A stretch of DNA of 54,639 bases from an uncultured Bacteroidales bacterium (GCA_964589855.1 CAZPVB010000006.1:1-54639); one strand, 5' to 3'; counted from the stretch's first letter, positions 20,601 to 35,273 are shown. Numbers and translations: made by a program. Notes: generated by a model not told the origin, from the sequence alone.

Positions 20601-22473
20601 CATGATAGAATATTCCGATGACGGAGGATCAACCTTTAACACCATTGCATCTGCTACAGATGCAACAGAGGGTACTTATAACTGGAGTGCATCTGAAGAA
20701 CTGCCAACAGGCGATCAGTATGTGATCAGAATAAGCTCCACGGATCCGGAAGGTTATCAGGACGCAACAGCAGCGTTCTCAATCATCGCTGAACCTGACC
20801 TTGAAACCAACTTTGGAGAGAACAGTTATTTGTGCGAAGGCAGTGTTCTCCATTTAAGCGTAAATACACAGGATGAATTTAGCTATCAGTGGTTCCACAA
20901 CGGTCAACCCATTGAAGGGGAAACTTCGGGCAGTTTGAATGTAGAACTACCGGGATACTACGAAGTGGAAGTTTTTTATGCAACAAATTGCAGTGTCCTG
21001 TTTGCCACACAGGTAGAATTTTCCGATAGCCCTGACATCATCTTTGAGCAAAACCTGCAATTTTGCATGAATGAATCGCCGGTTGAACTCAATATTGCCA
21101 CACCCGCCGGCGGAATCTGGTCGGGACCAGGTGTTGATAACGGTTTCTTCGATCCTTTAACAGCGGGAGAAGGAGAACATTATCTGGTGTATACTTTTGG
21201 TGAAACAGGAGAATGTTCCACTATAGATTCTGTAGAAGTAACCGTATTGCCATTTTACGATGAATTAACGATCAGTAATCTTGGTGAAGTGTGTGTTCTC
21301 AATGATCCATTCGCACTGCACTCTGATGATGTTCCCCCAGGTGGTACTTACGCAGGCCCTGGTATTACTGATGGTATCTTCGATCCGGAAGCTGCAGGTC
21401 CCGGAACCCATACCATAACTTATGCGGTTACCAATGAATGTGGTACCATGGAAGGATCCACCGAAATTACCGTTACGGAAGATACTCCTGAAGTATCTTT
21501 TGAACCATTTGCGGATGTATGCCTCAACCAGGAACCTTTTATTCTAAGCGGCGGCACACCATCTGGTGGAGAGTATTCAGGACCTGGCATTACAGATGGA
21601 ATGCTTGACCCTCAGGCAGCGGGTGAAGGTGAACACACAGTAGTATATACATTTAGCGATAATTGTGGAACAAATTCAGCGGAACAAACCATCAATGTGA
21701 TAAAATCTGTACCAGAGGTAATCGGAAAACCCGTTACCCTTTATCTGGATCAGAATGGCATCGCTAGCCTTACACCTGAAAATGTAAACGATGAAAGCTT
21801 TGACTCCTGTTCTGAGATCACTTTAAGTGTTGATCAGGAAACATTTACTTGCTCAGATTTAGGAGAAAACACAGTGGTTCTTTCCGCAACCAATGAGTTT
21901 GGACATTCAGGTTCTGCAAATGTTATGGTGACCATAGCAGATACCATTTCACCGGTGGTAGATGTGATCAACGACCTGACCATCCGTTTGGATGAAGATG
22001 GAACGGCAACCATCACAGCAGAAGACCTTGATAATGGTTCAACTGATAATTGTGAAATAGCAGAACTCACGCTCGATCAATACACATTCAATGAAAGTGA
22101 TATAGGTTTTCAAACCATTACCCTTACTGCAACCGATAGTAGCGGCAATAGTGCTGGTAAGCAAACCCAGGTGATCATTGAATCGGGCACAAACATTGCT
22201 GATATTGAACAGAATATGCATTTCAATGCATATCCCAATCCTTTCAGAGATGTTGTCTCTTTTGAGTTCAGTTCCAAAATCTCAGGTTATGCAACCATTG
22301 AACTTTACGACATGAATGGAGCACTGATATCGGTAGTTTATGAAGGATTTGTAGAAAACGGGCAATATTTTAAACTTGAACATCGCATTCCGGGCAATTT
22401 TACCGGTATGATATTCTACAAGTTAAGTATTGACCGTCATGTAAAAATCGGAAGGATGATGAGAGTTTACTAA
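2608..22473 (+). CDS. Giant (6621 aa) T9SS-secreted surface protein: 6x [Ig/CARDB-like + right-handed parallel beta-helix], Ig/Fn3, 7x CARDB, PPC/IPT-like domains, Gly/Pro/Cys-rich cassette, SxDPN domain, Fn3, Ig, HYR-like, T9SS type A C-terminal domain
   Basis: One uninterrupted ORF with an N-terminal signal peptide. Repeated N-x-I/F...YGI beta-helix rungs, PDLxV...NxG CARDB motifs, and a C-terminal AYPNPF...IELYDMNG...G-x-IFYKL...KxGR T9SS sorting signature. Confidence 0.9.
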   Translation: MKNSYHPSSRSHQFIFSLIVWFGISLFLIPEYSYSNETIQIGTGTSTTGTSEASPININHLSIKSQWVYQQSEISADEQPKLITEFGLYIATAPVHALPNFTIKMRHTSATDASAHIEEPFTVVYQNSAYEPQAGDFDNLTLTRPFFWNGTDNVAVEVCFDPVPSSSNSGTIRYYSQTNGFRYIRSNNEAVCDLETTSTSSRKPQATITLTDINENDAGIVSILNPQMPFAPGQTTLEAEIKNFGSTPLTAATVNWSINGAAPGSVNWSGNLSTNQTETVVLGNENFSDTEVYDIAIWTSEPNGETDPLATNDSIMEYGLLTSMAGSYTIGGSSPDFGSFQAAVDELSARGITSPVTINVRDGLYNEQVFIPFILGTSNDNTITFQAESGNPEDVTLSFNATSSQNYTVYLEKVGHLKFQNITLESENSTYGRVFSLGPETSHLTIENAVIKGNISTSSSSIRALVFGEGENLDNINILNNYFDGGAYGVHLNGVSNSHASNILIADNEYIDQGYTGVYLNRFENLEITYNVFYSTGSSYFGINLNSGAGERNFSSNRIYAPNGRYGIYNNSNSGTADQRVLISNNFISVGSNSTAYGITLNWSDKYMDIYHNNILVTGNSSNSSRALTTSSTNDNLNIKNNNFINTGGGYTVYLGTLNQVEINNNNYLSTGSVLARIINNEPTNLEELQQFTTQDVFSLSLDPYYDSDSSLYVNQLALYDAGVYVGVDTDIDGSVRNTETPVIGAHEFVPPANDAAILAINEPSLPFDAGVNNINVKIKNNGSENLTSLSIQWEVNEQVQTAHAWSGNLVPGEEADITIGSFDFTINQSHDLKIWAEQPNGQQDGFAQNDTIFWNAVYPALIGTYTVGGSTPDFENLTNATVNLRTGGITGDVIFDIRAGSYNEQLVIHEFPRTDSTSRVTFRSANQNAEDVTITYSSSWSDNYTILLTNVINIELSDLTLTATNSSYANIIELVSAENILIQNNVFQGVETTFTSTSRTSVYSNSWHNGIEIENNTFFHNSYAIYLNGNSNTEGTIISGNNFEDQSGQGIYIRNQRMPLIQNNQISTTVASSSFTGIEVRDSNEGFQISENTLTANNGTYGIYIRNANGTSTDRASIHNNFIHMQSSGTFYGVYIYSADYLNFVFNNIHVTGASENSHALFSRFGNNQVLVNNIFANSAGGYAAYISSPAVISNIDHNNYFVTGPYLGYWDNTSIAGLTDWANASGGDENSLSLDPIFVTDSDLHVQQVGLKEKGTPIAGITTDIDGEERNTENPDIGADEFPVPENDAGIEAVLSPVSPFGSGENMVSVSLANYGVNNLTSVEVGWEVNNVSQPVLEWTGNLAAGESISVDLGNYPFQAGISHEIKAWTNLPNDVADGVNFNDTTSVSGLIPALLGDYTIGGEAPDYENFEAAIMALNTSGILGAVTFQVRSGTYNEQLIINAIEGTSEENTITFRSETADSTDVILSFNSGTSDNYIVRFDGASHVILENMTLQSENTSRARLVEFINNSKNIHLSGNVLPGSTTNTTSTNTSLIFLSGDEFENITLENNLFSNGSYGVYITPSWNNYQGPLHIKNNTFENQYATGIHVTFMDNLVIEENHISTQSTYTSYNGMNIGGRNATLISSNIVLTNDGNRGITANINGTSETKGEIVNNFIYLAGVSSGGYGLEVRNSSHTDIFHNNVYLTTSHSSSRAFYAAGGNNLSVVNNNFIHSENGYAFYTSSSSNLINSDHNNLYAPIGKLGYWSNTNADDLETWQSLSGFDINSLSVDPIFNSHTDLHVNQSALNQAGTDVGVSTDIDGEPRNNTTPDIGADEFIPLSLDLAMLSVDEPSVPFASGNQEVKVSFKNNSTQLISSVFLLWTVNGEPQTSYQWSGELQPGESAQATIGSYNFELVVPYDITITSSNPNGLTDQLAINDTVAATGLFSALDGIYTIGGDDADFENFTQATDLLNMAGVFGPVTFRARPGVYEEQIVFEKFPGASEENRVTFTPENDADSTTTIRFNPGSGNNFIARFNDAEFITLKNLTLESVNSFYGIVININGLSNHLEFSGNTIIGSNTNSTSTGRSAVYAVNEPFSNILFHQNHIQYGSYGLYLYGNGNQPGIVISENTITDQYRYGIYLRNLPDARILKNTIQSQTDYSSYHAIHLTSSPGAFQINQNRIMGSFDGYGIYVTSSSASVQDRALISNNFIQAGSSNNTDGIHLNSSGNIDVVYNSVNITSTAASSYAFNSNWSQDNIIKNNIFASTSGVRTMRFAPTSYSFTSDRNNFYTPGNVLADFGGDIANLASWQSQTGKDGNSLSVDPVFESDSVLYTGQNELVGAAEPQSRVNVDIDDNTRDPFAPVIGAHELTTATEDASVADIISPVIPFAEGVNELSISLLNNALNNLTDVTIHWIVNGLEQTPYQWNGDLSPGSVAEITIGNFNFIFGESYNITVYSSLPNGVDDQRPQNDTLHLENIYAGLNGTYTIGSGLADFSDFSSAIEALNNGGIAGDVEFVVKPGTYTEQLQIGNIAGTSNGNTVTFRSENNDYSDVTLTYEGDSQENYVVKMNNTRGVHFEYITFESIHETYSRIVDLSGNLQDISLKKNRFAGNQSTSTSNLRSLIFGQVASLHNVILEENSFQYGSYAVYLEGNSSNTDTDAVFRKNTFFDQYNAGAYLINITAPLIADNTLTSAATSNSFYGFYLQNCNEGINISSNSIHSIENGYGIYITSSSSNLTRSNILNNFIQTGGSGNAYGIFMTGSSRFNIFHNTLHVTGTSASNGRAFYITSGANNLIRNNIFHNSGSGYALYINSTGSISSSNYNNLFSTGSNVGYWGNTAVADLTDWQNTSGQDANSLSLDPVFLDTIAPYITQASLSASGVPIAEVSTDIDGNPRKPGNPSMGAVEFLPLNQHDAQVVDILEPYAPFAAGNQDVKISIRNNGSEELTSLLVNWRINGESQQSYLWEGNLSTSQEEEIIIGTYEFNIAASHLVSIELTQPNGETDESPSDNTLASGELYPALNGSYSVGGSSSDFSSVNQAINNLNLGGVMGPTELLLSNGVYSGKIHIQSYPGMNENSPVTIRSAAQDSTLASIYHLAGSNQDNYTILLDDASYIHFKHLTLESRGSNYGRVIVLSNGASHNSFTNNIIKGAVNTSASNSRALMYSGNTSDNDITISNNLFLNGSSAIYLDGGNQTGIQILDNIIKDQHAYGIYLRNQNRPLMERNEISSATPRYSYTGLYLSGISNGISIYGNKIISPQNTGILLTSSSGTAGSRFLIANNFVSVGGTSQATGIDIRNTNFVDLFFNNVNVYSTEASGRSLYTTGGQNINLANNILSAKKGALALYINTPSAISSSNHNNLFTTSPPIAHWNGSISGLDQWQETTSYDNNSLSVDPVFYSDTVLYVMQPLLYGAGTPLSAVPDDIDGNTRDAEDPAIGAHEFEPLPNDMGPVAFVSPLSACELSDQEFISIQVQNFGTNAQTGFEISYIYNGDQVTENVQDITIEPFEVYEHTFSNPIDLSTEGDYTFAFITQLSGDENTNNDNLSNITVSHLASPTVQLVSDQVICEGESVLLVAGGGTQYLWSNGEMTSSILVSPETSQNYEVTIENELGCSTTASVLVEVLPAATAPIITAGGEIEFCQGESVTLTSDIAQDIIWSTGETSPSITATESGSYSVTHTNESGCQAVSNVIDVVLYPAPELEVSNPGPICPGEEISLDVTGGSSFVWSTGEQTSGIVVQPVESTEYTVDVSDDTGCDYILSHFAEVLQPEVPGAVSNMLPPNQSVDLSLPLSFSWAPADHATLYDLYIWPQGESTPESPALEGITTINANFEGDLDYGQSYNWTIYARNACYSTPGETQTFGLRELPDLVVEEIQINQEVFAGLPLDLSYTVSNAGAGSTEAQPWKDAIYVSFNSTFDNTAVRLAEFTNQSYLNPGQSYTQTVEVDIPGNLLGEYYIFVFADSQSKVIEISTDNNVARNEGTEGIMISLPPLANLEAQTLNVGQAAFSGDSINVTYSAQNTGDIAASGIESLYRMFTLLINGQVSQHCYFTERIWIDGIYLSQNPVFDRLDAELIHENTVKIRSENYDGSLSCEGLTSWNNEPDYLDSGEEYMRVVPALIPHQLSGTYYLHVVLNDGNVFSEYNKNNNVITSQPIEIVLRPPPDLIVEQISIDEPVVSGERYSVEWAVKNQGANNPVEKNWRDAVYISEFPFLDGNAIYLNQKGVNKGDTLSANSQYMLSTNINIPEGIEGEHYLHVLTDANNNVFESLFDDNNSTSIPLMIEQGNYPDLVVSEVNMEQNTIAGNQALVNWTVLNQGEGKPKSSWTDRIFISEDPAYDPSNAYQIANRTRVHNLDAGESYYNQIQINIPEGLEGTWYVHVITDIENRVFEDGRNDNNLTTGNAFNIFEQPAVPLSDLAITQSSANETGYSGTNLDVSWLVENVGEGRSNHGSWTDKVFINSEPSLDNAIFLKNQTRNGYLQPGESYQRFTDVTLPDGIAGNYYLIVVADANEKLNDTIRDNNISILPLEVILSPSPDLVVESFEIAETIYSGQDFWAHYTIKNQGEGAAEGRWTNRVKVSSTPDLSQSGISVGNKTRTLQLQPGESHNDSLLVSIPTYISGNRYLVLSVDDINDIYEHQAEDNNLFPITANILVPLPSDLIVESVQMPPGTVEAGEETAFQYIVSNQGTNTAVGSLRDVVHLSPDQQLDAANDPIAGFKQQSIVLEPGESQTRTVNTRMPGVIPGDYFGIVRTNILGNVQETDLANNTLASDETTQVSISELPVDVVVNTELDIDDIKYYQIATEPDKDMIITLTSDQSHGENEIFVAYDRVPDRVNFDFSHGNPNSTEQTVLVPSTLDGNYYLRLNTRTNFPNGQTVGILAQLLPFGIREVSPSVVGQGRVTTLLTGAGFSTDSEIYLTNNSDDIIAYGEIHEFRNSMQMYVRWYFDETPLGTYNLNVTNADGDVETLMDGLIIEETQTFELAEYSIIPTAIAASSTAFYSFSFENLSNIDIPYAVLTFRFPLGTDLVNFSSSSNAWQLSQLYENVGFDEGDDYIDDNEFRNVPIFVRDLAPNEVFSSSLVFKGFPEANFALQTEQIAMETDEFMNLIASSAETNRQYIINNPSLFNDPDFEELVALTVTEEVYRNSYFEDYIGSGLVDPADTVGIDFECFVCDQEFADSEDTGNNNYTYTPGSSPGTEEFDNLTFGSGESYLWDINRSLYWSEYEGPLGVAGQYPGWDLIRVDGTLDITSSFLNPFTFYMRSLSYTNYRGTLAGWYPAEDVCWPVVVADQILGFDPDRFVVNSYYFEQYNDVYGGTFHVEMSEGSDTLYICFTAYKPGIGEDGVPGAPGVFCEPGSPGGPGGPGNGTIPPGNGGRGGDGGDCFAEGLPGGDGGPGGKGGKGGFGQDGGTGGDGGNGGYGGPDANGGDGGDGGDGGDSGAGGNGGQGGMGGDGGTGGTGSGQGGNGGEGGKGGSVEVNTGVVGGSGGSGGNAGAGPGGDGNPGPGGPGVFPDGPDGPDGDPPPTCCPPPPTPPPPPGDDPPPPEPPVPPGDDDDPPPPPPGEPDPPIPPPCCGPNLPDPPPIDDDPFIPDDDDDNDGFEPAECGQAPSVSQGDCSDRFKGPDPCASAVANCAAALAKMLARTCRFGPQACKVGAALGAAKCALLTGKCVYSRMEKNRKTNEHCRPVVRSCDPNDILGPDGYGDERFVSVNDQLGYTIRFENDPEFAQAPAQTVIISQQLDENIDPLSFRLGAFGFADYVFDVPANVSSYNKRIDLRDSLSIFLDVVAGVNVESNEIFWILSSIDPATGATPSDPFKGFLAINDDTGVGEGFVTYTVKPTSDSQTGDKIFAEAEIIFDINEPIITPEIFNTIDAIAPTSAMQELADVSPSNIVELNWSAEDDTNGSGVKDYFLYVSEDGDPLTPLAGPLNEKSYSFSGLPGITYGFATLARDNVLNTEPTKTVPDVSTTINPDLEEYLSITSPGAGSAYCSESTISITWDQFGIEIIMIEYSDDGGSTFNTIASATDATEGTYNWSASEELPTGDQYVIRISSTDPEGYQDATAAFSIIAEPDLETNFGENSYLCEGSVLHLSVNTQDEFSYQWFHNGQPIEGETSGSLNVELPGYYEVEVFYATNCSVLFATQVEFSDSPDIIFEQNLQFCMNESPVELNIATPAGGIWSGPGVDNGFFDPLTAGEGEHYLVYTFGETGECSTIDSVEVTVLPFYDELTISNLGEVCVLNDPFALHSDDVPPGGTYAGPGITDGIFDPEAAGPGTHTITYAVTNECGTMEGSTEITVTEDTPEVSFEPFADVCLNQEPFILSGGTPSGGEYSGPGITDGMLDPQAAGEGEHTVVYTFSDNCGTNSAEQTINVIKSVPEVIGKPVTLYLDQNGIASLTPENVNDESFDSCSEITLSVDQETFTCSDLGENTVVLSATNEFGHSGSANVMVTIADTISPVVDVINDLTIRLDEDGTATITAEDLDNGSTDNCEIAELTLDQYTFNESDIGFQTITLTATDSSGNSAGKQTQVIIESGTNIADIEQNMHFNAYPNPFRDVVSFEFSSKISGYATIELYDMNGALISVVYEGFVENGQYFKLEHRIPGNFTGMIFYKLSIDRHVKIGRMMRVY
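3253..12915 (+). repeat. Six tandem ~537-aa protein modules (Ig-like + beta-helix)
   Basis: Module starts (xDA/xDL motif) at 3253, 4867, 6472, 8083, 9691 and 11311, with a 7th Ig at 12916; spacing 1605-1620 nt. Each module has Y(T/S)(I/V)G...D(F/Y) and ends DID...R...GAxE. Confidence 0.9.
14179..16915 (+). repeat. Seven CARDB-like repeats within the giant protein
   Basis: Repeated (P/S)DLxV...V/I-x-NxG...W-x-D-x-x-Y/F-x-S...L-x-x-GES...GxYY...D...E...NN units starting near 14179, 14554, 15067, 15442, 15820, 16183 and 16549. Confidence 0.8.
18595..19375 (+). repeat. GC-rich low-complexity GGxGGx (PGRS-like), then polyproline and poly-Asp coding tract
   Basis: GGTGGCGAT/GGCGGC repeats encoding GGDGGDGG..., then PPPTCCPPPPTPPPPPGDD... 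and DDDDDND. Confidence 0.9.
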
Positions 22474-25033: not shown

Positions 25034-26064
25034 TGTTAGAAAACACGATAGAGAAATCCCCGGTTCAAATTTCAAAAGAAGATTTTGCCAGCGATCAAAT
25101 GGTTAAATGGTGCCCGGGTTGTGGCGGCCATGCTATCCTGGCAGCAGTAGAAAATGTCTTTCCCAGAACGGGTTATAAAAAAGAGAACTTTGCCATGATA
25201 TCAGGGATCGGTTGCTCTTCCAGGTTCCCGTATTATGTAAACACCTATGGCATACATGGCATACATGGCAGAGCCAACCCAATTGCTACAGGCGTAAAAG
25301 TATCCAACCCCGAACTCAGTGTTTGGATTGCTACAGGCGATGGCGACTCCATGGCCATTGGAGGAAACCATTTCATCCATACCATAAGGCGCAATCTGGA
25401 TGTAAACATCTTATTGTTTAACAACCAGATCTATGGTCTTACAAAAGGCCAGTTTTCCCCCACCACTCCTATGGGAAAAGTAACCAAAACCTCTCCCTAT
25501 GGAACCATAGAACATCCATTCCTTACAGCTGGCCTGGTCATGGGTGCACAGGGTACTTTCTTTGCAAGGGTACCCGATAACAATATAAAACTCATGACCG
25601 ATGTGCTTTACGAAGCAGCCAAACACGATGGCACATCTGTGGTAGAGATTTTAGAAAACTGTGTGATATTTAATGATAAAGCACACGCAGATTATACCGC
25701 ACGTGCCAACAGAGAAGAAAACCAACTTATCCTCAGACATGGCGAACCGATGATATTTGGTAAAGATATGGATATGGGTGTGATCATGAAAGACCGTAAT
25801 TTATATTGTGTAAAAATTGGCGTAGGTGGTATAAAGGAAAAAGACATCCTTGTTCACGACCAATATAGCCAGGATCCGGGAGTTCACAGAAGATTGGGCA
25901 GAATGCTCGGACCAGACTATCCCATTGCTTTTGGAGTGATACGTTCTGCCAAAGCAGATACTTATGATGATAAGGTGGAAGAGCAAATCAAATATGCCAG
26001 GGAAACATCGCCAATAAAAAACATGGATGATCTGCTTAACAGTGGTGAAACATGGGAAATTTAA
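25033..26064 (+). CDS. korB: 2-oxoacid:ferredoxin oxidoreductase beta subunit (TPP-binding)
   Basis: Motifs WCPGCG, SGIGCSSR, GDGD...GGNH and NNQIYGLTKGQ; TAATG stop/start overlap with korA. Confidence 0.93.
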   Translation: MLENTIEKSPVQISKEDFASDQMVKWCPGCGGHAILAAVENVFPRTGYKKENFAMISGIGCSSRFPYYVNTYGIHGIHGRANPIATGVKVSNPELSVWIATGDGDSMAIGGNHFIHTIRRNLDVNILLFNNQIYGLTKGQFSPTTPMGKVTKTSPYGTIEHPFLTAGLVMGAQGTFFARVPDNNIKLMTDVLYEAAKHDGTSVVEILENCVIFNDKAHADYTARANREENQLILRHGEPMIFGKDMDMGVIMKDRNLYCVKIGVGGIKEKDILVHDQYSQDPGVHRRLGRMLGPDYPIAFGVIRSAKADTYDDKVEEQIKYARETSPIKNMDDLLNSGETWEI

Positions 26065-26133
26065 GTTTTTGAATTCCTTTATAACCCCTCTTTTGGAAAA
26101 TAAGACCCTCAAAAAAACCCGGTAGAAAAATTT

Positions 26134-26985
26134 TTATTCCTGCCGGGTTATTTTTCCTGTAAAAAGCAAATCGATGTTTTCTTTGTCTATCAATTTCCAG
26201 TAATAAACCCCGGGTGCCAGATCAGGAACAGATATGCCTTGTCTTGTGGTATTTTCAATCAGTATTCTTTCATTATCGTTGTTAAAAAACTCCACAACCA
26301 GGTTTTTATTTTCAGGATTCGACCACTTTAAAGAATCAAAATCAGACCAGTAAATGCTGGAAGGAACTTTTATCTTTATTGCTCTTCCTCTGTAAAAACT
26401 ATCTGAATTGTTGACGAGTTTTTCCAAATCCTCATGAGGTGTAAAACGGGCCAATAAAACCTGCGAATCGCTGGATTGCTGATTTTTTTCTTCCTCAGCA
26501 TTCGGCAATGTATCTTCATCCCCTTCATTTTCATCCTTTTCCTTTTCGGAAGTCACTGATGGATCATTACCTTCGGGTTGTGTATCGGTTTGAAGATCGA
26601 TTACCTCATGGTCTTGCGGTATCAGCGCATTGGATTCATGATATTCTTTGCTATCCGGATGTGTGCTTTCTGTAAGATTATTTTCAGTGGCAGGTTTCCA
26701 TAAAAAGGCAAAAACAACTACTCCAAAGCCAATAACAGCTGCTGCGGTCAATAGCGGGTAAAAGAAGGAGTAATTTTTTAAACGAAAGGTGCCAGGTTTT
26801 TGCTCTTTTTGCCCTTTTTTAAAATCGAAAGCTATATCTGCCACCATCAATACATCCGAAGAGCATTGGTCGCAATCTGTGAGATGCCTGCGAATCTCTG
26901 CATCTACTTTTTCAAAGCGATTTTCGTTGATCGCTTCGGCGGTAAAGGCAATTTGTTCAGGTGTGAGATGTTTTGAATCAGACAT
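26134..26985 (-). CDS. Putative ZAS-type anti-sigma factor: Zn finger, one transmembrane helix, acidic linker, periplasmic beta-sandwich domain
   Basis: N-terminal H...HLTDCDQC (HxxxCxxC), TM segment PLLTAAAVIGFGVVVFAFLW, and C-terminal LxPGVYYWKL...GK Ig-like signature. Lies directly downstream of a sigma-like gene. Confidence 0.75.
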   Translation of the reverse strand: MSDSKHLTPEQIAFTAEAINENRFEKVDAEIRRHLTDCDQCSSDVLMVADIAFDFKKGQKEQKPGTFRLKNYSFFYPLLTAAAVIGFGVVVFAFLWKPATENNLTESTHPDSKEYHESNALIPQDHEVIDLQTDTQPEGNDPSVTSEKEKDENEGDEDTLPNAEEEKNQQSSDSQVLLARFTPHEDLEKLVNNSDSFYRGRAIKIKVPSSIYWSDFDSLKWSNPENKNLVVEFFNNDNERILIENTTRQGISVPDLAPGVYYWKLIDKENIDLLFTGKITRQE

Positions 26986-27171
26986 TTAAAATTTATAATG
27001 ATAATTTTTAATCGGGTTAAAGGGATGCTTTCGAACGGTAAAAGCCCATCAAACATATCTTTTTCAAAAGGAAAATACAAAAACCTGAACATCCCATAAT
27101 AATAAATTGCTGTATGACCGTTCATTAGTCATCGCAAAAGATAATACAAAATTAGAAAAAAAAACAAACAA

Positions 27172-27897
27172 TCAGGATGATTTTCTAAGTTCCATCAAAA
27201 TTTGAAGACTTTCGCGGGTATGATTATAAATTCCATTCATATTGATCCGGTTCAGGATAACATCCAATTGCTTATTTACCCACATTCTTACCGAATCACC
27301 CTTTACATTTTTTTGTTCTACAAGATTGGTAACAAAAGCCAATCTTTCAAATAAATCACTTTTGTTTTTCGGAGAATCATCCGAAAGAACAGCATAAACC
27401 TCAAGGAATTTATCTCCTGAGTAATTTTGAATATCCGATTCGTCTAAAGAAATACGGAAATAGTATTTTACAAAAAGATTGATCTTTGAACCCTGTCCGT
27501 TGAAAAACAACATGGCATTTGCCAATCTTTTTACTTCTTCTTTTATGATTAGATTTTTTTCTGTATCGGAGGTGTAATGAACAGGTTTATAAATTTCAAA
27601 CTCATGCATATCATCATCTACAGGATACCAGTGCTTCTTTTCTTTGCGTATAATTTCGCAACACATTCGGTTCATGATCGCAATGTAATAGGTTGTTTTC
27701 TTTGATTTTCCTTCAAAAGCATGATCAATTCTATCCTTCTGCAGCAGAAATTTTTCAAGTATTGTCATGATCACGTCCTCTTTCTCTCTCTCCGGAATAG
27801 CAGATCGTAAAATATACCGGGAAACAACTTTTGTCGCGATATCCTTCATTTCATCCATAGGTATGTCTAAAGTAGGATCTGTCTGCTGATCAATCAT
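27172..27897 (-). CDS. Atypical ECF-like RNA polymerase sigma factor
   Basis: Region-2-like EDVIMTILEKFL...FEGKSKKTTYYIAIMNRMCCEIIRK; the C-terminal half is a divergent, extended region 4 (...GDSVRMWVNK). Confidence 0.7.
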   Translation of the reverse strand: MIDQQTDPTLDIPMDEMKDIATKVVSRYILRSAIPEREKEDVIMTILEKFLLQKDRIDHAFEGKSKKTTYYIAIMNRMCCEIIRKEKKHWYPVDDDMHEFEIYKPVHYTSDTEKNLIIKEEVKRLANAMLFFNGQGSKINLFVKYYFRISLDESDIQNYSGDKFLEVYAVLSDDSPKNKSDLFERLAFVTNLVEQKNVKGDSVRMWVNKQLDVILNRINMNGIYNHTRESLQILMELRKSS

Positions 27898-28924
27898 ATT
27901 TTCTAATTTATATTATAATGTTAGTGTGTGATGTTTTCCAGTTATGCTGCTTTAAGGCAATATGACATCAAAAAATATCGAAAAATATAGATACATCATA
28001 CCTGTTTCATTTTCTTTGCCGGAGTGTAAAAACACAATCAAATAATTTTTACAAACAACATTGAATATCAATCATAATGATCAATATCACATGATTTGTT
28101 TTTCCTCAACGCAATAATACAGGATAAACCTTTACAAAACCTCAAAGAAACACGTAAATTCACAAATTCACAAAACAATCTCTTAAAACCTTAAAAAACA
28201 ACTACTTTATGAACTTTTTTTATCATAAACAAGTGATTTCCGATACCCATCTAGGTTGAAGTGTTCGTTATTTTATTCATTTTTCCTTTTCTCAAAATCC
28301 ATTGATCAATGATTGAGGACAGTATAAAAAGGATATTGTCCACTAATGTCCCGAATGATCTCGCACTTAACAATCTGATTTTATGATACATGACAAACTA
28401 AAAAATGAACACGAACCTCTAAAAACAAGTTTGCAGACCAAGCTCATGATTAAAAATTTTAATCTTTTTTGATCAGACAAAGTAACCATTCAAAACTTTA
28501 GTGGTTTACCAGCAAAACCCTTGTTAATTCTTTTTTGTGGCGCTTTTGTAAAAATAAATTGAAGAAAACTTTGGATTTATTTTGCTGAATGGTCAATAAA
28601 TGACACTATAAATAAGATGAACCTGTCCTTTTACAAATAAAACTTTTATCACTATTTGAGCACCAGGCAAAAAAAAGACTACATAAAAAACATCATATCC
28701 CGGTATTTTTTTTAATTTTACGCCAGGAAAACAGGTCTAATATGCTTACTAAAAACAACTTACAAAACAAGATAAACAAAACAAGATCGCTTCTTTTTAA
28801 GATAAGAAACCAATTTTTGGATTCGAAACAAATAAGAATACCGCTGTTAAGCAAAGACAAAATATGGGATGTACGAAAACCACATACTTGTTTATTGTAG
28901 GCAAGAAAAATAATTTTTTCCATG

Positions 28925-29056
28925 TACCCGATGAGAAAGCGTCAAGTGCAAAGATTACGGTGACAGAAAAACCATAGTCTCGTTGAAAAAATGCGATGAA
29001 TGTTTTGATGGCAGACATAATGCAGCAATATCCTCTTTTCTTGCTGACACTAATTA
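28925..29056 (+). repeat. Dispersed structured element family B, degenerate copy
   Basis: Shares CAAGTGCAA, TGACxGAAAAAC, CATAAxGCAGCAA and TTTTCTTGCTGxCACTAATTA with 35139-35273. Confidence 0.65.
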
Positions 29057-29175
29057 GGTGAAATCAAACCCGGTGGTGATATCAAAAAAAAATTCCAAAC
29101 ATCAGGATTGCCTTATATAACAAACCAACAATAAAAAAAAGTGTTGTTTGATCAATCTGACAAAACTACAAGTCT

Positions 29176-32034
29176 ATGAATATAAGATCTGCTTTTTTAC
29201 TTACTGCATTTTTGCTGCTCTGCTTCACCCGGGCTTTTTCTCAGTACTATCCGTTTTATCCAGAGGAAAGAGAATTAAAAACTTATCCCTTCTTTACTGA
29301 CTATGAAAGGATCATAGAGGAGTATAATCAGGAAAAAAACATACCGCAAACTGTTCATGCCCTCGATAGTTTATCAAAATTGGTTTTAGAGCAAGAGGAG
29401 TATCGGGGATGGTTGTTTTTACAAAATGAAAAATCCAATTTCCTGAAGTTTAACAACCAAATTGAAGATGCACATGCTGTTGCTTATCAAGCCATACAAA
29501 CTTTTGCAGAAAATCACGATACACTTACACTGGAGTATGCAGTATCACTCCGGTTGCTCAGAGGTTATGAAAGACTTGGAAATATTGGCAAAAGGACAGA
29601 GAAGGAACTTTTTCAATCGCAAATGGCATTGATAAATAAACTGGGTGTTACAGGAGAGCCGCTTACCAACACCCTCGTTGAATATGGATTGTTCCAGCTG
29701 CGGGATCAAAGGAAAGAGGAAGCAATCGAAATCTTGTATCAGGCCAGAAAAAGTGCTTTAAAAAACGATGATCTTAAAAGTCTCGCCCTTGCAGATTATA
29801 GTATCATAACAAACATCGACAGAATTGATCTTCAACAGACAACGCTCGACATCATACTTACCGATATAGAGTTATTTGAAGAAAACCTTCACTCCATCCC
29901 CGTGCTGATTTACAACAGTTACTTTCATTACCTGGCTGGTGAAACTTATTACAAGTATTTCAACAACCCCGATACTGCTATCGATCATTACAAAACCGCC
30001 ATAGACTGCCTTGATACCCTTCAGTATCCTCAATGGAACCTTAAGGCATCTATACACTCCAGCCTGGCAAAAATAATTGCCGGTAAAAAGAACGAAATTG
30101 ATTTTCGTTATCACTACCAGAAGGCCTTTGCCATTGCATCTGAAAAACCCATGTCACCCTACAATCAGGCGTTATCACATTATAATCTGCAAAGTGCAAT
30201 GCTAAATTTTTATCCCGATTCTGTACTATTCAATCAGGAAAAACATGAACTACTCAAAGGATACCCGTTTTTTAAATACGACTTTCTTTCAAATGTAGTG
30301 AAGGCGAATATAAAACTTAAAAATTACGAAAAAGCACTGGCTCTTATCAATGAAAACTCCCCAGAGACAACCAGCATAGGGGAAGCTACTTTTCCTTCAG
30401 CAACCGACAGTCTTGATACTGGCGTTCAGATTTCTCTTTTATCACTTGCTTTTGAAACCATTACGCAATTATATGCCCGATATGGTTCAACAGACTTTGA
30501 GCGTGCACTGGTTAAGATCATAGAGGATCAAAACAACCTATATATAGATTGGGTGGAAGAGAATATTTTCAGCAACGAACTCTCATCCATTACAGATGAC
30601 TATCATGATTTCATCATGAAATCTCTTCATTTTTATCACCAAAACAAACTGGAAGAATCATATACTCACAAGATAGCAAAGCTTGTTTTTTCATCCAAAG
30701 CTATTGAGTTGAATAACAGTTTGGGCAAAAACAAAATACAAACACTGATAGAACAAGATACGGAAACGTTGCAATCTCTCATGACAATGGCATCGGAGAT
30801 ACAAAGCGTACGAAACGAAAAAAACAATCCGCACTTAGAAGAAGAAAGGCAAAGAGAACTCAACAAAGAATTGAATACTTTGCTCATTGACAATCTGATA
30901 GTAAGACAAAAGATCAACCCGGAGGAACATAATAAAATCAACTCTGTTAAAATTCCATCGCTTGCAGAAATACAGGAAAGTCTGCAACCAGGAGAGGTGA
31001 TTCTCGAATATTCTATCACTGATACAATGATTGTAAGGACATCTATAGGAAAAGATTTTTTCAACAGTTGGCATGTAATCCGGGAAGATATTGAAAAGCA
31101 ATTCAACAATGCCATCTACGATGTAAAAACAGGAAATTATTTTTCCGGAGAGTTTTCGACATTGCTATTGCAGGGTCTGGATGATGAATTACGATCTGCA
31201 AAAAAAATCATTGTTGTACCTGATAAAAAGATGCATCTGATACCCTTTGAATTACTCACCTGGGGTGAGGGGTTAATCATAAACTCCTTTCCCGTTGTTT
31301 ACAATTATTCTTCCTCACTCTGGTATCGTCAAAAATCCATGAAAAGAGAGGAAAAAAAGCATTCTTTTCTTGCCATCGCTCCGGTTTTTGATCAACAAAA
31401 AAACACGCCTGAAAATTTGCCTTTGCTTGCCTCTTCTTATCGCGAAAAAACAGATTTGGATCCCCTCACGCACTCAGGGGAGGAAGTAAAAGCCATTCAT
31501 GATCTTTTTACAGACAATGGATTACACGCCAAAACCTTAACCTACCATGAATCTACTGAGAACAATGTGCGAAAAAAGATCAATCAGTATTCAATTTTGC
31601 ATTTTGCCACCCATGGCATCGTAGACAAAGAAAACAGTGAAAGATCGGGTCTGGTTTTATTTCCTGATGAAGCAGACCCGGAATTATCCTTATCCGGGGA
31701 AGATAATTTTTTGAGTTTGGGTGAATTGTTTACCATCAGATTAAACGCTCACCTTGTAACATTGAGTGCCTGCAATACCGGCATTGGTGAGATCAGAGGC
31801 AGTGAGGGAGTGATAGCACTTCCGAGAGGCTTCATACATGCAGGTGTACCCAATGTTCTGGCTTCACTCTGGCGTGTGAATGATGAAAAAACCAAGTACC
31901 TGATGACCCGCTTTTACACCCATGTATTGGAAGAAAAAAGTTTTCCGGAGGCAATTCGTTTGGCAAAACAGGATTGCATTAACCGGGGATTTCTCCCCCT
32001 TGACTGGTCCGGTTTTGTACTTATTGGAATATAG
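29176..32034 (+). CDS. Exported TPR-like plus CHAT domain (caspase-like clan CD) protease
   Basis: Signal peptide MNIRSAFLLTAFLLLCFTRAFS; helical TPR-like repeats; CHAT motifs IVVPD...IPFELL, HFATHG (His codon 31612), VTLSACNTG (Cys codon 31771), ASLWRVND and DWSGFVLIG. Confidence 0.92.
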   Translation: MNIRSAFLLTAFLLLCFTRAFSQYYPFYPEERELKTYPFFTDYERIIEEYNQEKNIPQTVHALDSLSKLVLEQEEYRGWLFLQNEKSNFLKFNNQIEDAHAVAYQAIQTFAENHDTLTLEYAVSLRLLRGYERLGNIGKRTEKELFQSQMALINKLGVTGEPLTNTLVEYGLFQLRDQRKEEAIEILYQARKSALKNDDLKSLALADYSIITNIDRIDLQQTTLDIILTDIELFEENLHSIPVLIYNSYFHYLAGETYYKYFNNPDTAIDHYKTAIDCLDTLQYPQWNLKASIHSSLAKIIAGKKNEIDFRYHYQKAFAIASEKPMSPYNQALSHYNLQSAMLNFYPDSVLFNQEKHELLKGYPFFKYDFLSNVVKANIKLKNYEKALALINENSPETTSIGEATFPSATDSLDTGVQISLLSLAFETITQLYARYGSTDFERALVKIIEDQNNLYIDWVEENIFSNELSSITDDYHDFIMKSLHFYHQNKLEESYTHKIAKLVFSSKAIELNNSLGKNKIQTLIEQDTETLQSLMTMASEIQSVRNEKNNPHLEEERQRELNKELNTLLIDNLIVRQKINPEEHNKINSVKIPSLAEIQESLQPGEVILEYSITDTMIVRTSIGKDFFNSWHVIREDIEKQFNNAIYDVKTGNYFSGEFSTLLLQGLDDELRSAKKIIVVPDKKMHLIPFELLTWGEGLIINSFPVVYNYSSSLWYRQKSMKREEKKHSFLAIAPVFDQQKNTPENLPLLASSYREKTDLDPLTHSGEEVKAIHDLFTDNGLHAKTLTYHESTENNVRKKINQYSILHFATHGIVDKENSERSGLVLFPDEADPELSLSGEDNFLSLGELFTIRLNAHLVTLSACNTGIGEIRGSEGVIALPRGFIHAGVPNVLASLWRVNDEKTKYLMTRFYTHVLEEKSFPEAIRLAKQDCINRGFLPLDWSGFVLIGI

Positions 32035-32369
32035 ATTTTTAATATATTTATGCCAATAATTCCAAAATAAACTAAAAGTTCAAATTTATTAAGGAGTTAT
32101 GGGTTTTATTGGGGTGTTAAAATTATAAAGAAATTTTGTATATTAGCGGTCGTTTTAAAACAGGCACACTCCCGTGTCTTAGAAAACATTATGATTGTAA
32201 TGAGATGAACAAAACCATGAGAATAATATGAATGCTCAAGCAAATTAAGTTTGTTTTGCCATGATGTAAAACAAGTATGAATGATATTGTTGAATCATCT
32301 GACCGAATGAATCAAATCAGAAACAGATTAATCCTTATATTTTATTTATTATTTAACTATTATACCGTG

Positions 32370-33839
32370 ATGAAAGAAAGTATGTCAAGAAGGAAGTTCT
32401 TAGGTAATACAGCGCTGGCTGCTGCTGGTTTTACCATACTTCCCAGTACAGTTATCAGTGGATTGGGACACAAAATGCCCAGCGATAAACTCAATATTGC
32501 AGGCGTTGGTGTTGGTGGACGAGGTTTTGCTGTTTTAAAAGGGATGGAGAGTGAAAACATTGTAGCACTATGTGATGTAGACTGGCGATACAGCCAGGGG
32601 TGCTTTGATCACTACCCCAACGCCAAAAAATATTGGGACTGGCGCAAGATGTTTGATGAGATGGGTAATGATATAGATGCCGTAGTTGTGGCTACCGCCG
32701 ATCATACACATGCTATTGTTGCTGCCCATGCCATGACCATGGGGAAACACGTATATGTTGAGAAACCCCTTACCCATACAGTTTACGAATCGAGGTTGCT
32801 CACCAGATTGGCCGAAAAACACCAGGTAGCAACCCAAATGGGTAACCAGGGATCCTCACACGACGACGTACACAAACTCACCGAATGGTTGTGGAACAAC
32901 GAAATTGGCGAGGTAACAAAAGTAGAAGCATTTACCGACCGCCCCATTTGGCCACAAGGTTTGGCAACACCTGAAGGACAGTGGGTTCCCGATCACATCG
33001 ATTGGGATCTGTTTATCGGCCCTGCTCCTATGCGTCCTTACAATGAAATTTATACGCCCTGGAATTTCAGAGGATGGTGGGATTTTGGTACAGGTGCACT
33101 GGGTGACATGGCCTGCCATATTCTCCACCCTGTTTTCAAAGGATTACAACTCGGATACCCAATCAAAGCGCAGGGCAGCTCCACACTGCTACTTCAGGAT
33201 AGTGCGCCTACAGCAGAAAAGGTAAGACTCGTTTTCCCGGAGCGCAGGAAAATCCGCGAATCAAAAATGCCTTTCCCCGAAGTGGAAGTTACCTGGTATG
33301 ATGGAGGTTTACGCCCCGATATGCCCGAAGGTTGGCCTGCCGGAAAAAATATGAATGATGCAGGTGGTGGTGTATTGTTCCACGGAACAAAGGATACACT
33401 GATATGTGGTTGTTATGGTTTACGGCCATGGCTGCTCTCCGGACGCGAACCCAACGTAAAACAAACCTTACCACGTGTAGAACTTACACACTACATGGAT
33501 TGGGTACGTGCCTGTAAAGAGGACCCTGCAACCCGCAAAAAAACAGCATCTGATTTTAGCGAGGCAGGTCCATTTAATGAGATGGTTGTGATGGGCGTAT
33601 TGGCTGTTAGATTGCAAGAACTTAACAAAGAACTTGAATGGGATGGCGAAAAAATGGAATTCACTAACATCAATGATGATGAAGAGATCAGAATCGTGAT
33701 AGAAGATGGGTTCCAGATTAAAGACGGACACCCCACCTTTGACAAAACCATGACCGATCCAATCAATGCAAAAGCGTTTGCTCAGGAACTCATAAAACAT
33801 AACTACAGATCAGGCTGGAACCTCCCCAATATGCCTTAA
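32370..33839 (+). CDS. Tat-exported Gfo/Idh/MocA oxidoreductase (glycoside 3-dehydrogenase-like)
   Basis: SRRKFL twin-arginine signal, GVGVGGRG Rossmann motif, HVYVEKP, QMGNQG and GALGDMACH. Start at 32370 is preferred over 32277. Confidence 0.88.
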   Translation: MKESMSRRKFLGNTALAAAGFTILPSTVISGLGHKMPSDKLNIAGVGVGGRGFAVLKGMESENIVALCDVDWRYSQGCFDHYPNAKKYWDWRKMFDEMGNDIDAVVVATADHTHAIVAAHAMTMGKHVYVEKPLTHTVYESRLLTRLAEKHQVATQMGNQGSSHDDVHKLTEWLWNNEIGEVTKVEAFTDRPIWPQGLATPEGQWVPDHIDWDLFIGPAPMRPYNEIYTPWNFRGWWDFGTGALGDMACHILHPVFKGLQLGYPIKAQGSSTLLLQDSAPTAEKVRLVFPERRKIRESKMPFPEVEVTWYDGGLRPDMPEGWPAGKNMNDAGGGVLFHGTKDTLICGCYGLRPWLLSGREPNVKQTLPRVELTHYMDWVRACKEDPATRKKTASDFSEAGPFNEMVVMGVLAVRLQELNKELEWDGEKMEFTNINDDEEIRIVIEDGFQIKDGHPTFDKTMTDPINAKAFAQELIKHNYRSGWNLPNMP

Positions 33840-35138: not shown

Positions 35139-35273
35139 TTAATTAGTCTTTGCAAGAAACCAACAAGTGCAACGCTTGCGATGACTGAAAAACAGGAGTT
35201 TACTTTTCGTAAATGACTGTTTTGAAGGCGAGCATAACGCAGCAACTGGCGTTTTCTTGCTGGCACTAATTAA
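35139..35273 (+). repeat. Dispersed structured element family B, best-preserved copy (MITE-like or ncRNA)
   Basis: Terminal inverted repeat TTAATTAGT....GCAAGAAA / TTTCTTGC....ACTAATTAA; inner stem AAAAACAG..GTTTAC-loop-GTAAAT..CTGTTTTT. Confidence 0.7.

Follow-up and report, generated by a model that had tools for sequence, protein, structure and literature searches.

A divergent CHAT peptidase gene and an ECF-like sigma/anti-sigma pair as a candidate trans-envelope signalling module in Bacteroidales

We analysed a stretch of 54,639 nucleotides from an uncultured Bacteroidales bacterium (GCA_964589855.1 CAZPVB010000006.1:1-54639; the whole stretch is called the window here). Positions 26,134 to 32,034 carry three genes, for an apparent sigma factor of the extracytoplasmic function (ECF) kind, a putative zinc-type anti-sigma factor with one membrane helix and, on the opposite strand, a CHAT-domain peptidase with a probable export signal. 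Neighbourhood, phylogeny and presence/absence across the order show the three genes to be coupled, and it is very probable that they form one functional unit. By analogy, the trio is best explained as a trans-envelope signalling module, a split form of the DdvA/DdvS system of Myxococcus xanthus, published in 2024, which consists of a transmembrane anti-sigma factor with a periplasmic TPR-CHAT region and an ECF sigma factor (PMC11506125). That the CHAT protein acts upstream on the anti-sigma factor, as its site-1 protease, we rate about as probable as its contrary.

Results

The three genes are neighbours in many genomes

A first-pass annotation of this DNA had described a sigma-like gene followed by an anti-sigma gene, both divergent from a CHAT gene. 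The layout is real, with all three open reading frames (ORFs) confirmed at the following coordinates.

26134-26985, minus strand: anti-sigma gene, ORF of 283 aa
27172-27897, minus strand: sigma-like gene, ORF of 241 aa
27898-29175: AT-rich spacer of 1,278 bp with two interspersed repeats, at 28306-28462 and 28901-29056
29176-32034, plus strand: CHAT gene, ORF of 952 aa

The anti-sigma gene follows the sigma-like gene on the same strand after 186 bp (gap 26986-27171), and 1,278 bp separate the pair from the divergent CHAT gene. In locus L033, from the closest genome that shares this arrangement, the spacer measures 106 bp. The gap between sigma and anti-sigma genes, 186 bp in the window, is elsewhere mostly 9-100 bp or a slight ORF overlap.

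Of 301 genomes sampled from the order, 36 carry a member of the sigma family at E≤0.001 (32 at E≤1e-10); at the level of the phylum the count is 6 of 401. Its neighbourhood was sampled at 34 loci, namely the window and 33 fetched flanks. At 28 of these, the next gene after the sigma gene, in the same direction, is a full-length anti-sigma gene (at least 200 aa); the remaining loci have a divergent anti-sigma gene (1), short forms of 70-109 aa (4) or a contig end (1). A CHAT gene lies within 10 kb at 11 of the 34 loci (the window, L033, L034, L036, L039, L044, L048, L053, L055, L061 and L063), and within about 1.3 kb of the pair in nine. Its orientation varies between divergent, convergent and co-directional, and the genomes come from different GTDB families. 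From the CHAT count and size of each genome, 0.53 such loci would be expected by chance (Poisson P 1.5e-11, relatedness ignored); P values of this kind overstate the case because related genomes are not independent. At one of the 11 loci, L053 (G215 contig 139, 3186-8627), the CHAT region is split over four ORFs of 320-480 aa, which may represent two genes or one broken gene. A further family of neighbours at eight loci, comprising hybrid histidine kinases and TPR proteins, was considered as a conserved partner and dropped as a mixed cluster of common signalling proteins.

CHAT genes are common, being present in 172 of the 301 genomes of the order with mostly 1 to 7 matches each, and the spacer in the window is 1.28 kb long and bears repeats. 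Both facts would suit a reading in which a common Bacteroidota CHAT gene lies near a sigma/anti-sigma operon by chance, with no functional link. We rejected this reading as barely credible on the neighbourhood counts above (11 of 34 loci against 0.53 expected), together with the dedicated CHAT clade and the presence/absence data described next.

The CHAT protein belongs to a clade that follows the anti-sigma type

In a tree of 35 CHAT domains, the eight CHATs adjoining the window type of anti-sigma gene form one clade (Shimodaira-Hasegawa-like approximate likelihood ratio test, SH-aLRT, 98). The genomic context label changes twice on this tree as compared to a mean of 9.5 for shuffled labels, and none of 500 shuffles was as low. 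The CHATs of L055, L061 and L063, which accompany distant sigma relatives, fall outside the clade. The tree was enlarged to 85 rows by adding every CHAT domain of 230 aa or longer found in 15 sigma-positive genomes without an adjacent CHAT gene. There the clade (SH-aLRT 97, 17 rows) gained the unlinked CHATs of G249, G058, G291, G041, G224 and G096 and none of the 24 rows with another context (labelled T or N) fell within it; the CHATs of G018 and G276 were placed with that of L055, a placement that carries a long-branch warning. Seven sigma-positive genomes (G140, G259, G114, G235, G261, G142 and G072) hold no clade CHAT; the wider sigma family thus does not keep this partnership throughout. 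This survey of clade membership left out G100, G157 and G238.

A profile of the N-terminal region of the clade matched 8 of the 301 genomes at E<1e-30, and all eight are among the 32 sigma-positive ones. Among the 15 genomes whose sigma relatives are closest (E≤1e-44), 13 hold a clade CHAT or a strong match to this profile; of the other two, G100 was outside the survey and G036 has no CHAT gene at all. Overall, a CHAT gene is present in 30 of 32 sigma-positive genomes as compared to 142 of 269 others (Fisher P 2e-6). The only CHAT-free sigma-positive genomes are G036 and G102 (94% and 98% complete). They encode only zinc-motif proteins of 70, 99 and 73 aa (loci L037 and L038 in G036, L057 in G102) that are soluble or have a membrane helix alone, and that are devoid of the periplasmic domain. 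One further locus, L086, combines the window type of anti-sigma protein (H-x3-C-x2-C motif, one membrane helix, sorting-domain-like end) with a sigma factor that has a canonical Sigma70_r4_2 domain, and its CHAT is still within the clade. In L086 the CHAT clade follows the anti-sigma type, not the sigma type. The survey of co-occurrence that the first-pass annotation had proposed thus came out in favour of a three-gene unit.

The same co-occurrence would be expected if the CHAT gene were the main target of the sigma factor. In that case the CHAT protein would be output and not input. The sigma/anti-sigma pair would sense envelope stress otherwise, for instance through redox attack on its zinc site or through a general protease of the periplasm, and the CHAT gene would be a principal member of the regulon, its exported product made when needed for remodelling, defence or self-destruction. 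ECF sigma factors often control neighbouring genes, the window, L033 and L044 share a divergent layout with a common upstream region, and two thirds of the loci lack an adjacent CHAT gene (23 of 34 have none within 10 kb). Obligate co-occurrence suits a regulator and its main target equally well. Several findings argue the other way: the CHAT-free genomes kept the sigma factor and lost the periplasmic part of the anti-sigma factor, the CHAT clade in L086 tracks the anti-sigma and not the sigma type, and the DdvA fusion puts the CHAT on the sensing side (PMC11506125).

Upstream sequences bear on this question to a lesser degree. The dyad TTTCA-N16-GCAAC precedes the sigma gene without mismatch at 7 of the 34 loci (L016, L034, L036 and L041-L044, 11-173 bp upstream of the annotated sigma start) and with at most one mismatch at 11, as compared to a background of 0.078 per random window. 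This could be an autoregulated promoter. None of 10 CHAT genes has the dyad upstream, which is only a weak point against the CHAT gene as regulon member since the window is itself without the motif. The distribution of the dyad is so patchy that it neither defines a regulon nor decides between the rival readings. On balance we hold an output role for the CHAT protein to be rather unlikely, and we continue with the reading of the trio as a signalling module in which the CHAT protein acts on the anti-sigma factor.

The 283-aa protein resembles single-pass zinc anti-sigma factors

The product of the anti-sigma gene (minus strand) is organized as follows.

26806-26985: cytoplasmic three-helix domain with H6, H34, C38 and C41, residues 1-60
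26701-26763: predicted membrane helix, residues 75-95
26479-26700: acidic disordered linker, residues 96-169
26137-26478: two helices and an immunoglobulin (Ig)-like sandwich resembling a type IX secretion system (T9SS) sorting domain, residues 170-283

All 27 relatives aligned have H34-x3-C38-x2-C41, and H6 is conserved in at least 90%. In a first aligned set the H-x3-C-x2-C motif was present in 17 of 19 proteins, those of L046 and L047 being without it. Together with the fourth, upstream ligand this is the pattern of ChrR-type zinc anti-sigma domains. The likeness to zinc-binding anti-sigma (ZAS) proteins such as ChrR, RsrA and RslA extends to a ligand about 28 residues before the motif, a short helical N-terminal domain and an adjoining sigma gene. 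The window protein differs from ZAS proteins in sequence profiles. No Pfam family matched it at E≤1, zf-HC2 (PF13490) included, and its family profile recovered no ZAS chain from the PDB at E≤10.

An AlphaFold2 (AF2) model of the protein (predicted local distance difference test, pLDDT, 78.3) has three helices over residues 9-60 (pLDDT about 96), two helices at 170-196 and a seven-strand sandwich at 204-281 (pLDDT above 90). A stretch of about 70 residues (about 100-170) is disordered; the 74 residues from 96 to 169 contain 22 Asp/Glu and no Arg. The motif, membrane segment and periplasmic domain of the first-pass annotation are all borne out by these data (27 of 27 relatives, predicted helix 75-95, sandwich 204-281). 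We therefore read the protein from its sequence as a probable single-pass zinc-type anti-sigma factor, one that, given the operon conserved at 28 of 34 loci, would bind its cognate sigma.

The fold matches of the sandwich are generic Ig and FN3 domains, the best at Z 7.8, and T9SS sorting domains appear at Z 6.2-6.7 amid many Ig-like folds. TIGR04183 matched the window protein at E 0.018 (15 bits versus a cut-off of 23), the anti-sigma family profile matched 8glk_D in the PDB, a sorting-domain signal, at E 0.0066, and PF18962 matched the relative in L086 at E 0.0017 (19.1 bits versus a cut-off of 27). Atlas neighbours of the protein include two zf-HC2 clusters (at 0.95 and 0.93; zf-HC2 in 45% and 59% of members) and a Por_Secre_tail cluster (at 0.92; in 34% of members), which we treat as leads only. 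The curated Por_Secre_tail cut-off was not reached. Four weak signals thus suggest, weakly, a resemblance of the sandwich to the T9SS sorting domain and not membership in that family. If real, a sorting-domain-like end on an inner-membrane anti-sigma factor would be oddly located.

The 241-aa protein is a probable divergent ECF-like sigma factor by predicted fold

Two domains of the sigma-like protein (minus strand) were assigned from fold matches.

27610-27882: sigma-2-like domain, about residues 6-96
27217-27576: sigma-4-like domain with an insertion, about residues 108-227

An AF2 model built from 34 family members (pLDDT 81.5) has two helical domains with a disordered linker between them. 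The model was compared with 48,161 PDB chains using VIA-align. Residues 6-96 matched BldN (Z 7.5, root mean square deviation (rmsd) 2.8, 69 aligned residues), CnrH (Z 7.2), SigR (Z 6.8), SigW (Z 6.5) and SigC (within Z 6.5-6.8), as well as SigB and sigma-70 domain 2. Most of the 25 best rows are sigma chains; all have Z below 8, a range that is common for helical models. The predicted fold of residues 6-96 is accordingly consistent with region 2 of an ECF sigma factor. Residues 108-227 matched the sigma-4 domain of SigL (3hug_A; Z 6.3, rmsd 3.3, 77 residues) and a LuxR-type helix-turn-helix protein (3p7n, Z 5.2), and this domain has roughly double the usual length. Inspection by eye shows the pattern of ECF region 2 to be retained in the family: an acidic residue, E-K-F, and F-x-G-x-S...T-Y...N-R...R. 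NCBI names two of the homologues 'region 4 domain-containing protein', and among Atlas neighbours of homologue P0024 Sigma70_r2 is found in 45% and 17% of cluster members. Of 280 candidates, 65 proteins belong to the family at E≤0.001; they come from metagenome bins of Bacteroidota and from Marinilabilia.

Sequence-level identity is weak by comparison. Pfam returned no sigma family for the 241-aa protein at E≤1. NCBIfam ECF models stayed below threshold (best E 0.0032, 17 bits versus a cut-off of 236; TIGR02937 12.6 versus 42.9), so region 2 is not recognized at the cut-offs of PF04542 or NCBIfam. An hhalign comparison with 12 canonical ECF sigma factors gave a probability of 4.4% (E 0.0093). 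PDB sequence searches with the single protein and with the family profile returned chance-level rows only, and a Foldseek search with the full model, both domains included, had ECF sigma factors at the head of its list but none that reached E≤0.001. The label 'sigma-like' in the first-pass annotation holds for the fold matches and sub-threshold profiles and fails for the Pfam sigma families. From the modelled fold, the sub-threshold profiles and language-model neighbours, we read the protein as a probable divergent ECF-like sigma factor, not a certified family member.

The CHAT protein has an intact catalytic dyad and a predicted export signal

The 952-aa protein (plus strand) comprises the following.

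29176-29241: signal-like segment, hydrophobic N-terminus, residues 1-22
29242-31158: helical N-terminal region, residues 23-661
31159-32028: CHAT domain (PF12770), residues 662-951
31612-31614 and 31771-31773: catalytic dyad, His813 and Cys866

PF12770 matches residues 662-951 at E 1.3e-56 (192.6 bits versus a cut-off of 24), and a genome search recovered the gene at the same place. His813 (HFATHG) and Cys866 (SACNTG) are invariant in 7 of 7 proteins, the window CHAT and six neighbours of related loci. The protein therefore qualifies as a CHAT peptidase by domain score and dyad, and the intact dyad claimed in the first-pass annotation proves correct. A signal peptide, also noted there, is probable, in that the N-terminus has a short basic stretch, a hydrophobic run and then AFS|Q. 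Export signals were judged here by a Kyte-Doolittle scan of N-termini (KD11 2.82 at residue 7 for the window protein). The Gln after the AFS cut fits the 'Q-rule' for signal peptidase I substrates of Bacteroidetes. A hydrophobic N-terminal segment is present in 35 of 35 CHAT ORFs collected from the order, several others of which have lipoprotein-type signals by eye. The description 'TPR-CHAT' is right for the CHAT domain; a TPR match in the window protein itself is not significant (TPR_1 E 0.35), and its relatives have clear TPR matches. The protein had no match among PDB sequences at E≤0.01, which leaves no sequence-level comparison with DdvA or craspase.

A proposed mechanism and its rivals

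From the gene anatomy, the motifs and the three-gene coupling, all directly seen here, we infer sigma binding, CHAT binding, cleavage and a signal, in the following order. At rest, the ECF-like sigma factor would be held at the inner membrane by the zinc domain of the anti-sigma factor (H6, H34, C38, C41). For activation, the exported CHAT protease would engage the periplasmic end of the anti-sigma factor, the acidic linker and Ig-like module. A periplasmic signal would be sensed by the 640-residue helical N-terminal region of the CHAT protein, whereupon the His813/Cys866 dyad would cut the disordered linker at site 1. The RseP-type site-2 protease of the genome would then clip the membrane helix, and the freed sigma factor would direct transcription of its regulon. 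A Peptidase_M50 gene fit for the second cut is present on contig 51 (one match, E 7.6e-59), a permissive finding only because the family is near-universal (14 of 14 control genomes). The DdvA authors propose the same succession of a CHAT cut in the linker, RseP and sigma release (PMC11506125). If the window genes are DdvA split in two, the fusion itself predicts an interaction between the anti-sigma and CHAT proteins.

The complex of the CHAT protein with the anti-sigma C-terminus, which the first-pass annotation had suggested modelling, was predicted from CHAT residues 62-952 and anti-sigma residues 175-283 with alignments of our own making. The interface score ipSAE was 0.50, 0.53 and 0.49 in three runs as compared to 0.00 for the best of three controls, for a verdict of 'weak support'; runs agreed in at least 79% of contacts, with partner pLDDT at least 79. 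In calibration, 58 of 80 solved complexes passed the mark, as did 2 of 110 mismatched pairs; because the alignments here were our own, these figures are only roughly valid. At ipSAE of 0.60 or less, 7 of those 80 solved complexes passed, together with both of the passing mismatches. By this calibration the score of the window pair falls in a band where passing scores are wrong more often than right, except for pairs that were likely partners to begin with. The claim of a ligand-gated, exported site-1 protease is thus compatible with the evidence, and draws something from the weak-support complex and the DdvA model; cleavage itself is plausible and unproven.

It was the folded sandwich, not the linker, that gave this score, which would suit a CHAT protein that is a partner of the anti-sigma factor without cutting it. 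Bound to the periplasmic domain, it could serve as a co-sensor, be an enzyme anchored there, or be restrained by the anti-sigma factor in a securin-like fashion, and it would cut other periplasmic or surface substrates; sigma release, if coupled, would come from conformational change or partner loss. Separase held by securin, as mentioned in PMC11506125, offers a parallel, and a C-terminal anchor in 10 of 12 CHATs of the second type described below suggests membrane-proximal work on other targets. Set against this, the dyad is intact in all seven aligned neighbours, the long disordered linker of the anti-sigma factor is a typical protease substrate, and regulated proteolysis is the norm, as generally known, for single-pass anti-sigma factors. 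A partnership devoid of anti-sigma cleavage seems to us quite unlikely.

The reading of the trio as a protease-gated switch has several results to contend with. The sigma factor is poorly supported in the Pfam and hhalign comparisons, 23 of 34 loci and seven sigma-positive genomes are without the expected CHAT partner, shared ancestry inflates the P values, the interface score sits in the error-prone band, and a target gene would co-occur just as well. The precedent has gaps too: cleavage of DdvA has likewise been put forward as a proposal, and the CHAT site there is called incomplete, with a three-helix motif missing from the active site (PMC11506125).

A second module and a wider pattern

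Across five genomes, a Sigma70_r2 gene lies within 5 kb of 4 of 6 CHAT genes, among them the second CHAT gene of the source genome. This gene is part of a module of four genes in a row (locus L064, G000 contig 24, 4908-11475): a canonical ECF sigma factor of 186 aa, a single-pass protein of 253 aa with periplasmic TPR, a TPR-CHAT protein of 1080 aa with a signal peptide and a C-terminal hydrophobic anchor, and a subtilase with a T9SS sorting domain. Among 20 further CHAT loci, drawn by rank from an order-wide list, eight adjoin an ECF sigma gene and a single-pass protein gene, with 0.89 expected. In total 12 of the 26 sampled CHAT genes adjoin an ECF sigma gene. The sigma/TPR-protein/CHAT layout is seen again in L065-L067 and in seven of the 20 rank-sampled loci, the eighth (L086) being of the window anti-sigma type, and the hydrophobic C-terminal anchor is present in 10 of 12 CHATs of this second type. 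The neighbour counts (4 of 6 and 8 of 20) imply that sigma/anti-sigma/CHAT trios are general in the order, with at least two anti-sigma designs.

We put forward one broader idea, tentative and on the doubtful side of possible. The order may hold a large unrecognized class of trans-envelope switches, in which a dedicated exported CHAT protein would be both sensor and site-1 protease of its own anti-sigma factor. At least two anti-sigma designs, one with a zinc domain and an Ig-like end and one single-pass with periplasmic TPR, would each co-diversify with their own CHAT clade, and the outer domain of the window type would mimic a T9SS sorting domain, to be recognized and clipped by the CHAT protein in the manner of PorU. 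PorU is the T9SS signal peptidase, a clan CD cysteine protease that removes sorting domains. If the idea is true, PorU-like clipping could tie sigma activation to the secretion state or the cell surface.

Relation to known systems

Both the window trio and DdvA/DdvS combine an N-terminal zinc anti-sigma domain and a single membrane helix with an extended flexible linker, a CHAT module with a His/Cys dyad on the periplasmic side and a partner sigma factor of the ECF type. DdvA is one chain, whereas the window has two genes on opposite strands. The zinc site is H/H/C/C in the window, as taken from conservation, and CHCC in DdvA. Unlike DdvA/DdvS, the window anti-sigma factor has a small Ig-like outer domain of its own and the window sigma factor is too divergent for Pfam. 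The trio is not a single-polypeptide fusion, and no CBASS/CRISPR island was seen next to it among the annotated flanking genes. A fused anti-sigma-CHAT protein was not found at E≤0.001 among the proteins of 497-2000 aa searched with the anti-sigma factor, which is weak evidence. DdvA-like fusions are reported only in Myxococcota and one Comamonas, only a subset of the pairs lies near defence genes, and Bacteroidota go unmentioned in the text of that paper (PMC11506125).

In type III-E craspase, the TPR-CHAT protein Csx29 cuts Csx30, an inhibitor of CASP-sigma (PMC10028731). The likeness lies in a TPR-CHAT protein proposed to free an ECF-like sigma factor by cutting the protein that holds it. 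Craspase is cytoplasmic, RNA-guided and Cas7-11-bound and belongs to a CRISPR locus, whereas the window has a CHAT protein with an export signal and a membrane zinc anti-sigma factor. The RseA/DegS/RseP system, regulated intramembrane proteolysis of the sigma-E anti-sigma factor as summarized in PMC10028731, shares with our proposal a single-pass anti-sigma factor, a periplasmic site-1 cut and an M50 site-2 cut. The candidate site-1 enzyme here would be a caspase-fold cysteine protease with a large helical region, as opposed to a PDZ serine protease, and window-type CHATs are dedicated, co-inherited partners, unlike the site-1 enzyme of the RseA system.

ECF54 sigma factors have carboxypeptidase, subtilase and CHAT genes in their context and no anti-sigma factor, which has been read as proteolytic control (PMC8999054). 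They resemble the present loci in the CHAT gene near an ECF sigma gene, and in the contig 24 module a subtilase gene also adjoins the CHAT gene. They differ in the anti-sigma factor, which ECF54 lacks and which is present here, of the zinc type, in 28 of 34 loci.

The first-pass annotation knew of no functional characterization of such a Bacteroidota arrangement. In light of DdvA/DdvS (PMC11506125) and the noted CHAT context of ECF54 (PMC8999054) this claim to novelty was too strong. DdvA-type protease-gated ECF sigma signalling is already known; the split, widespread Bacteroidota form appears to be new. The three-gene form was not found in the open full-text literature, a scope that leaves out most subscription journals and the full list of DdvA-like proteins. 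A type III-B CHAT cascade and CalpL/T/S are reportedly further related work.

Surroundings of the locus

The flanking genes are those of ordinary metabolism: 2-oxoacid:ferredoxin oxidoreductase (two subunits), a Gfo/Idh/MocA oxidoreductase and a 3-keto-disaccharide hydrolase. PADLOC assigned the three proteins to no defence family, and neither CBASS, CRISPR nor other defence genes were seen near the trio by PADLOC of the three proteins and annotation of the flanking genes. The absence of cas genes noted in the first-pass annotation agrees with the ORFs annotated at 22-36 kb, none of which is cas-like; CRISPR arrays in the rest of the window were not searched for.

The spacer at 27898-29175 contains no ORF above 76 aa. 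Its repeat at 28306-28462 is a unit of ~125-150 nt with 20 further copies, of 70-81% identity, on other contigs of the genome, two of them directly downstream of the second sigma/CHAT cluster on contig 24. The repeat at 28901-29056 recurs at 35155-35272 and on two further contigs. An Rfam scan of 25500-32500 returned nothing at E≤1. A structured RNA in the interspersed repeat on the plus strand was considered and dropped (consensus fold -3.4 kcal/mol, no compensatory pairs).

At 2608-22473 the window encodes a giant surface protein of 6,621 aa, with the anti-sigma gene 3.7 kb away. This protein combines repeated modules of beta-helix-like and Ig-like type with a stretch rich in Gly and Pro, and has a T9SS sorting domain at its C-terminus (Por_Secre_tail E 1.3e-5, slightly short of the cut-off). 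The window DNA is also found in microbial-mat metagenome runs of two studies, with no RNA run listed.

Discussion

In DdvA, the first cut by the CHAT domain is a structural proposal in which protease and substrate share one chain. In the trio described here the candidate enzyme and substrate are separate proteins of purifiable size with many natural pairs, so a direct trans-cleavage test is possible. The data also add a sigma family that current domain models miss. Exported CHAT proteins are abundant in the order and unexplained, and the 12 of 26 sampled CHAT genes that adjoin an ECF sigma gene point to a possible role for a good part of them. Possible physiological roles for such modules would include envelope stress, secretion state, and phage or predator sensing.

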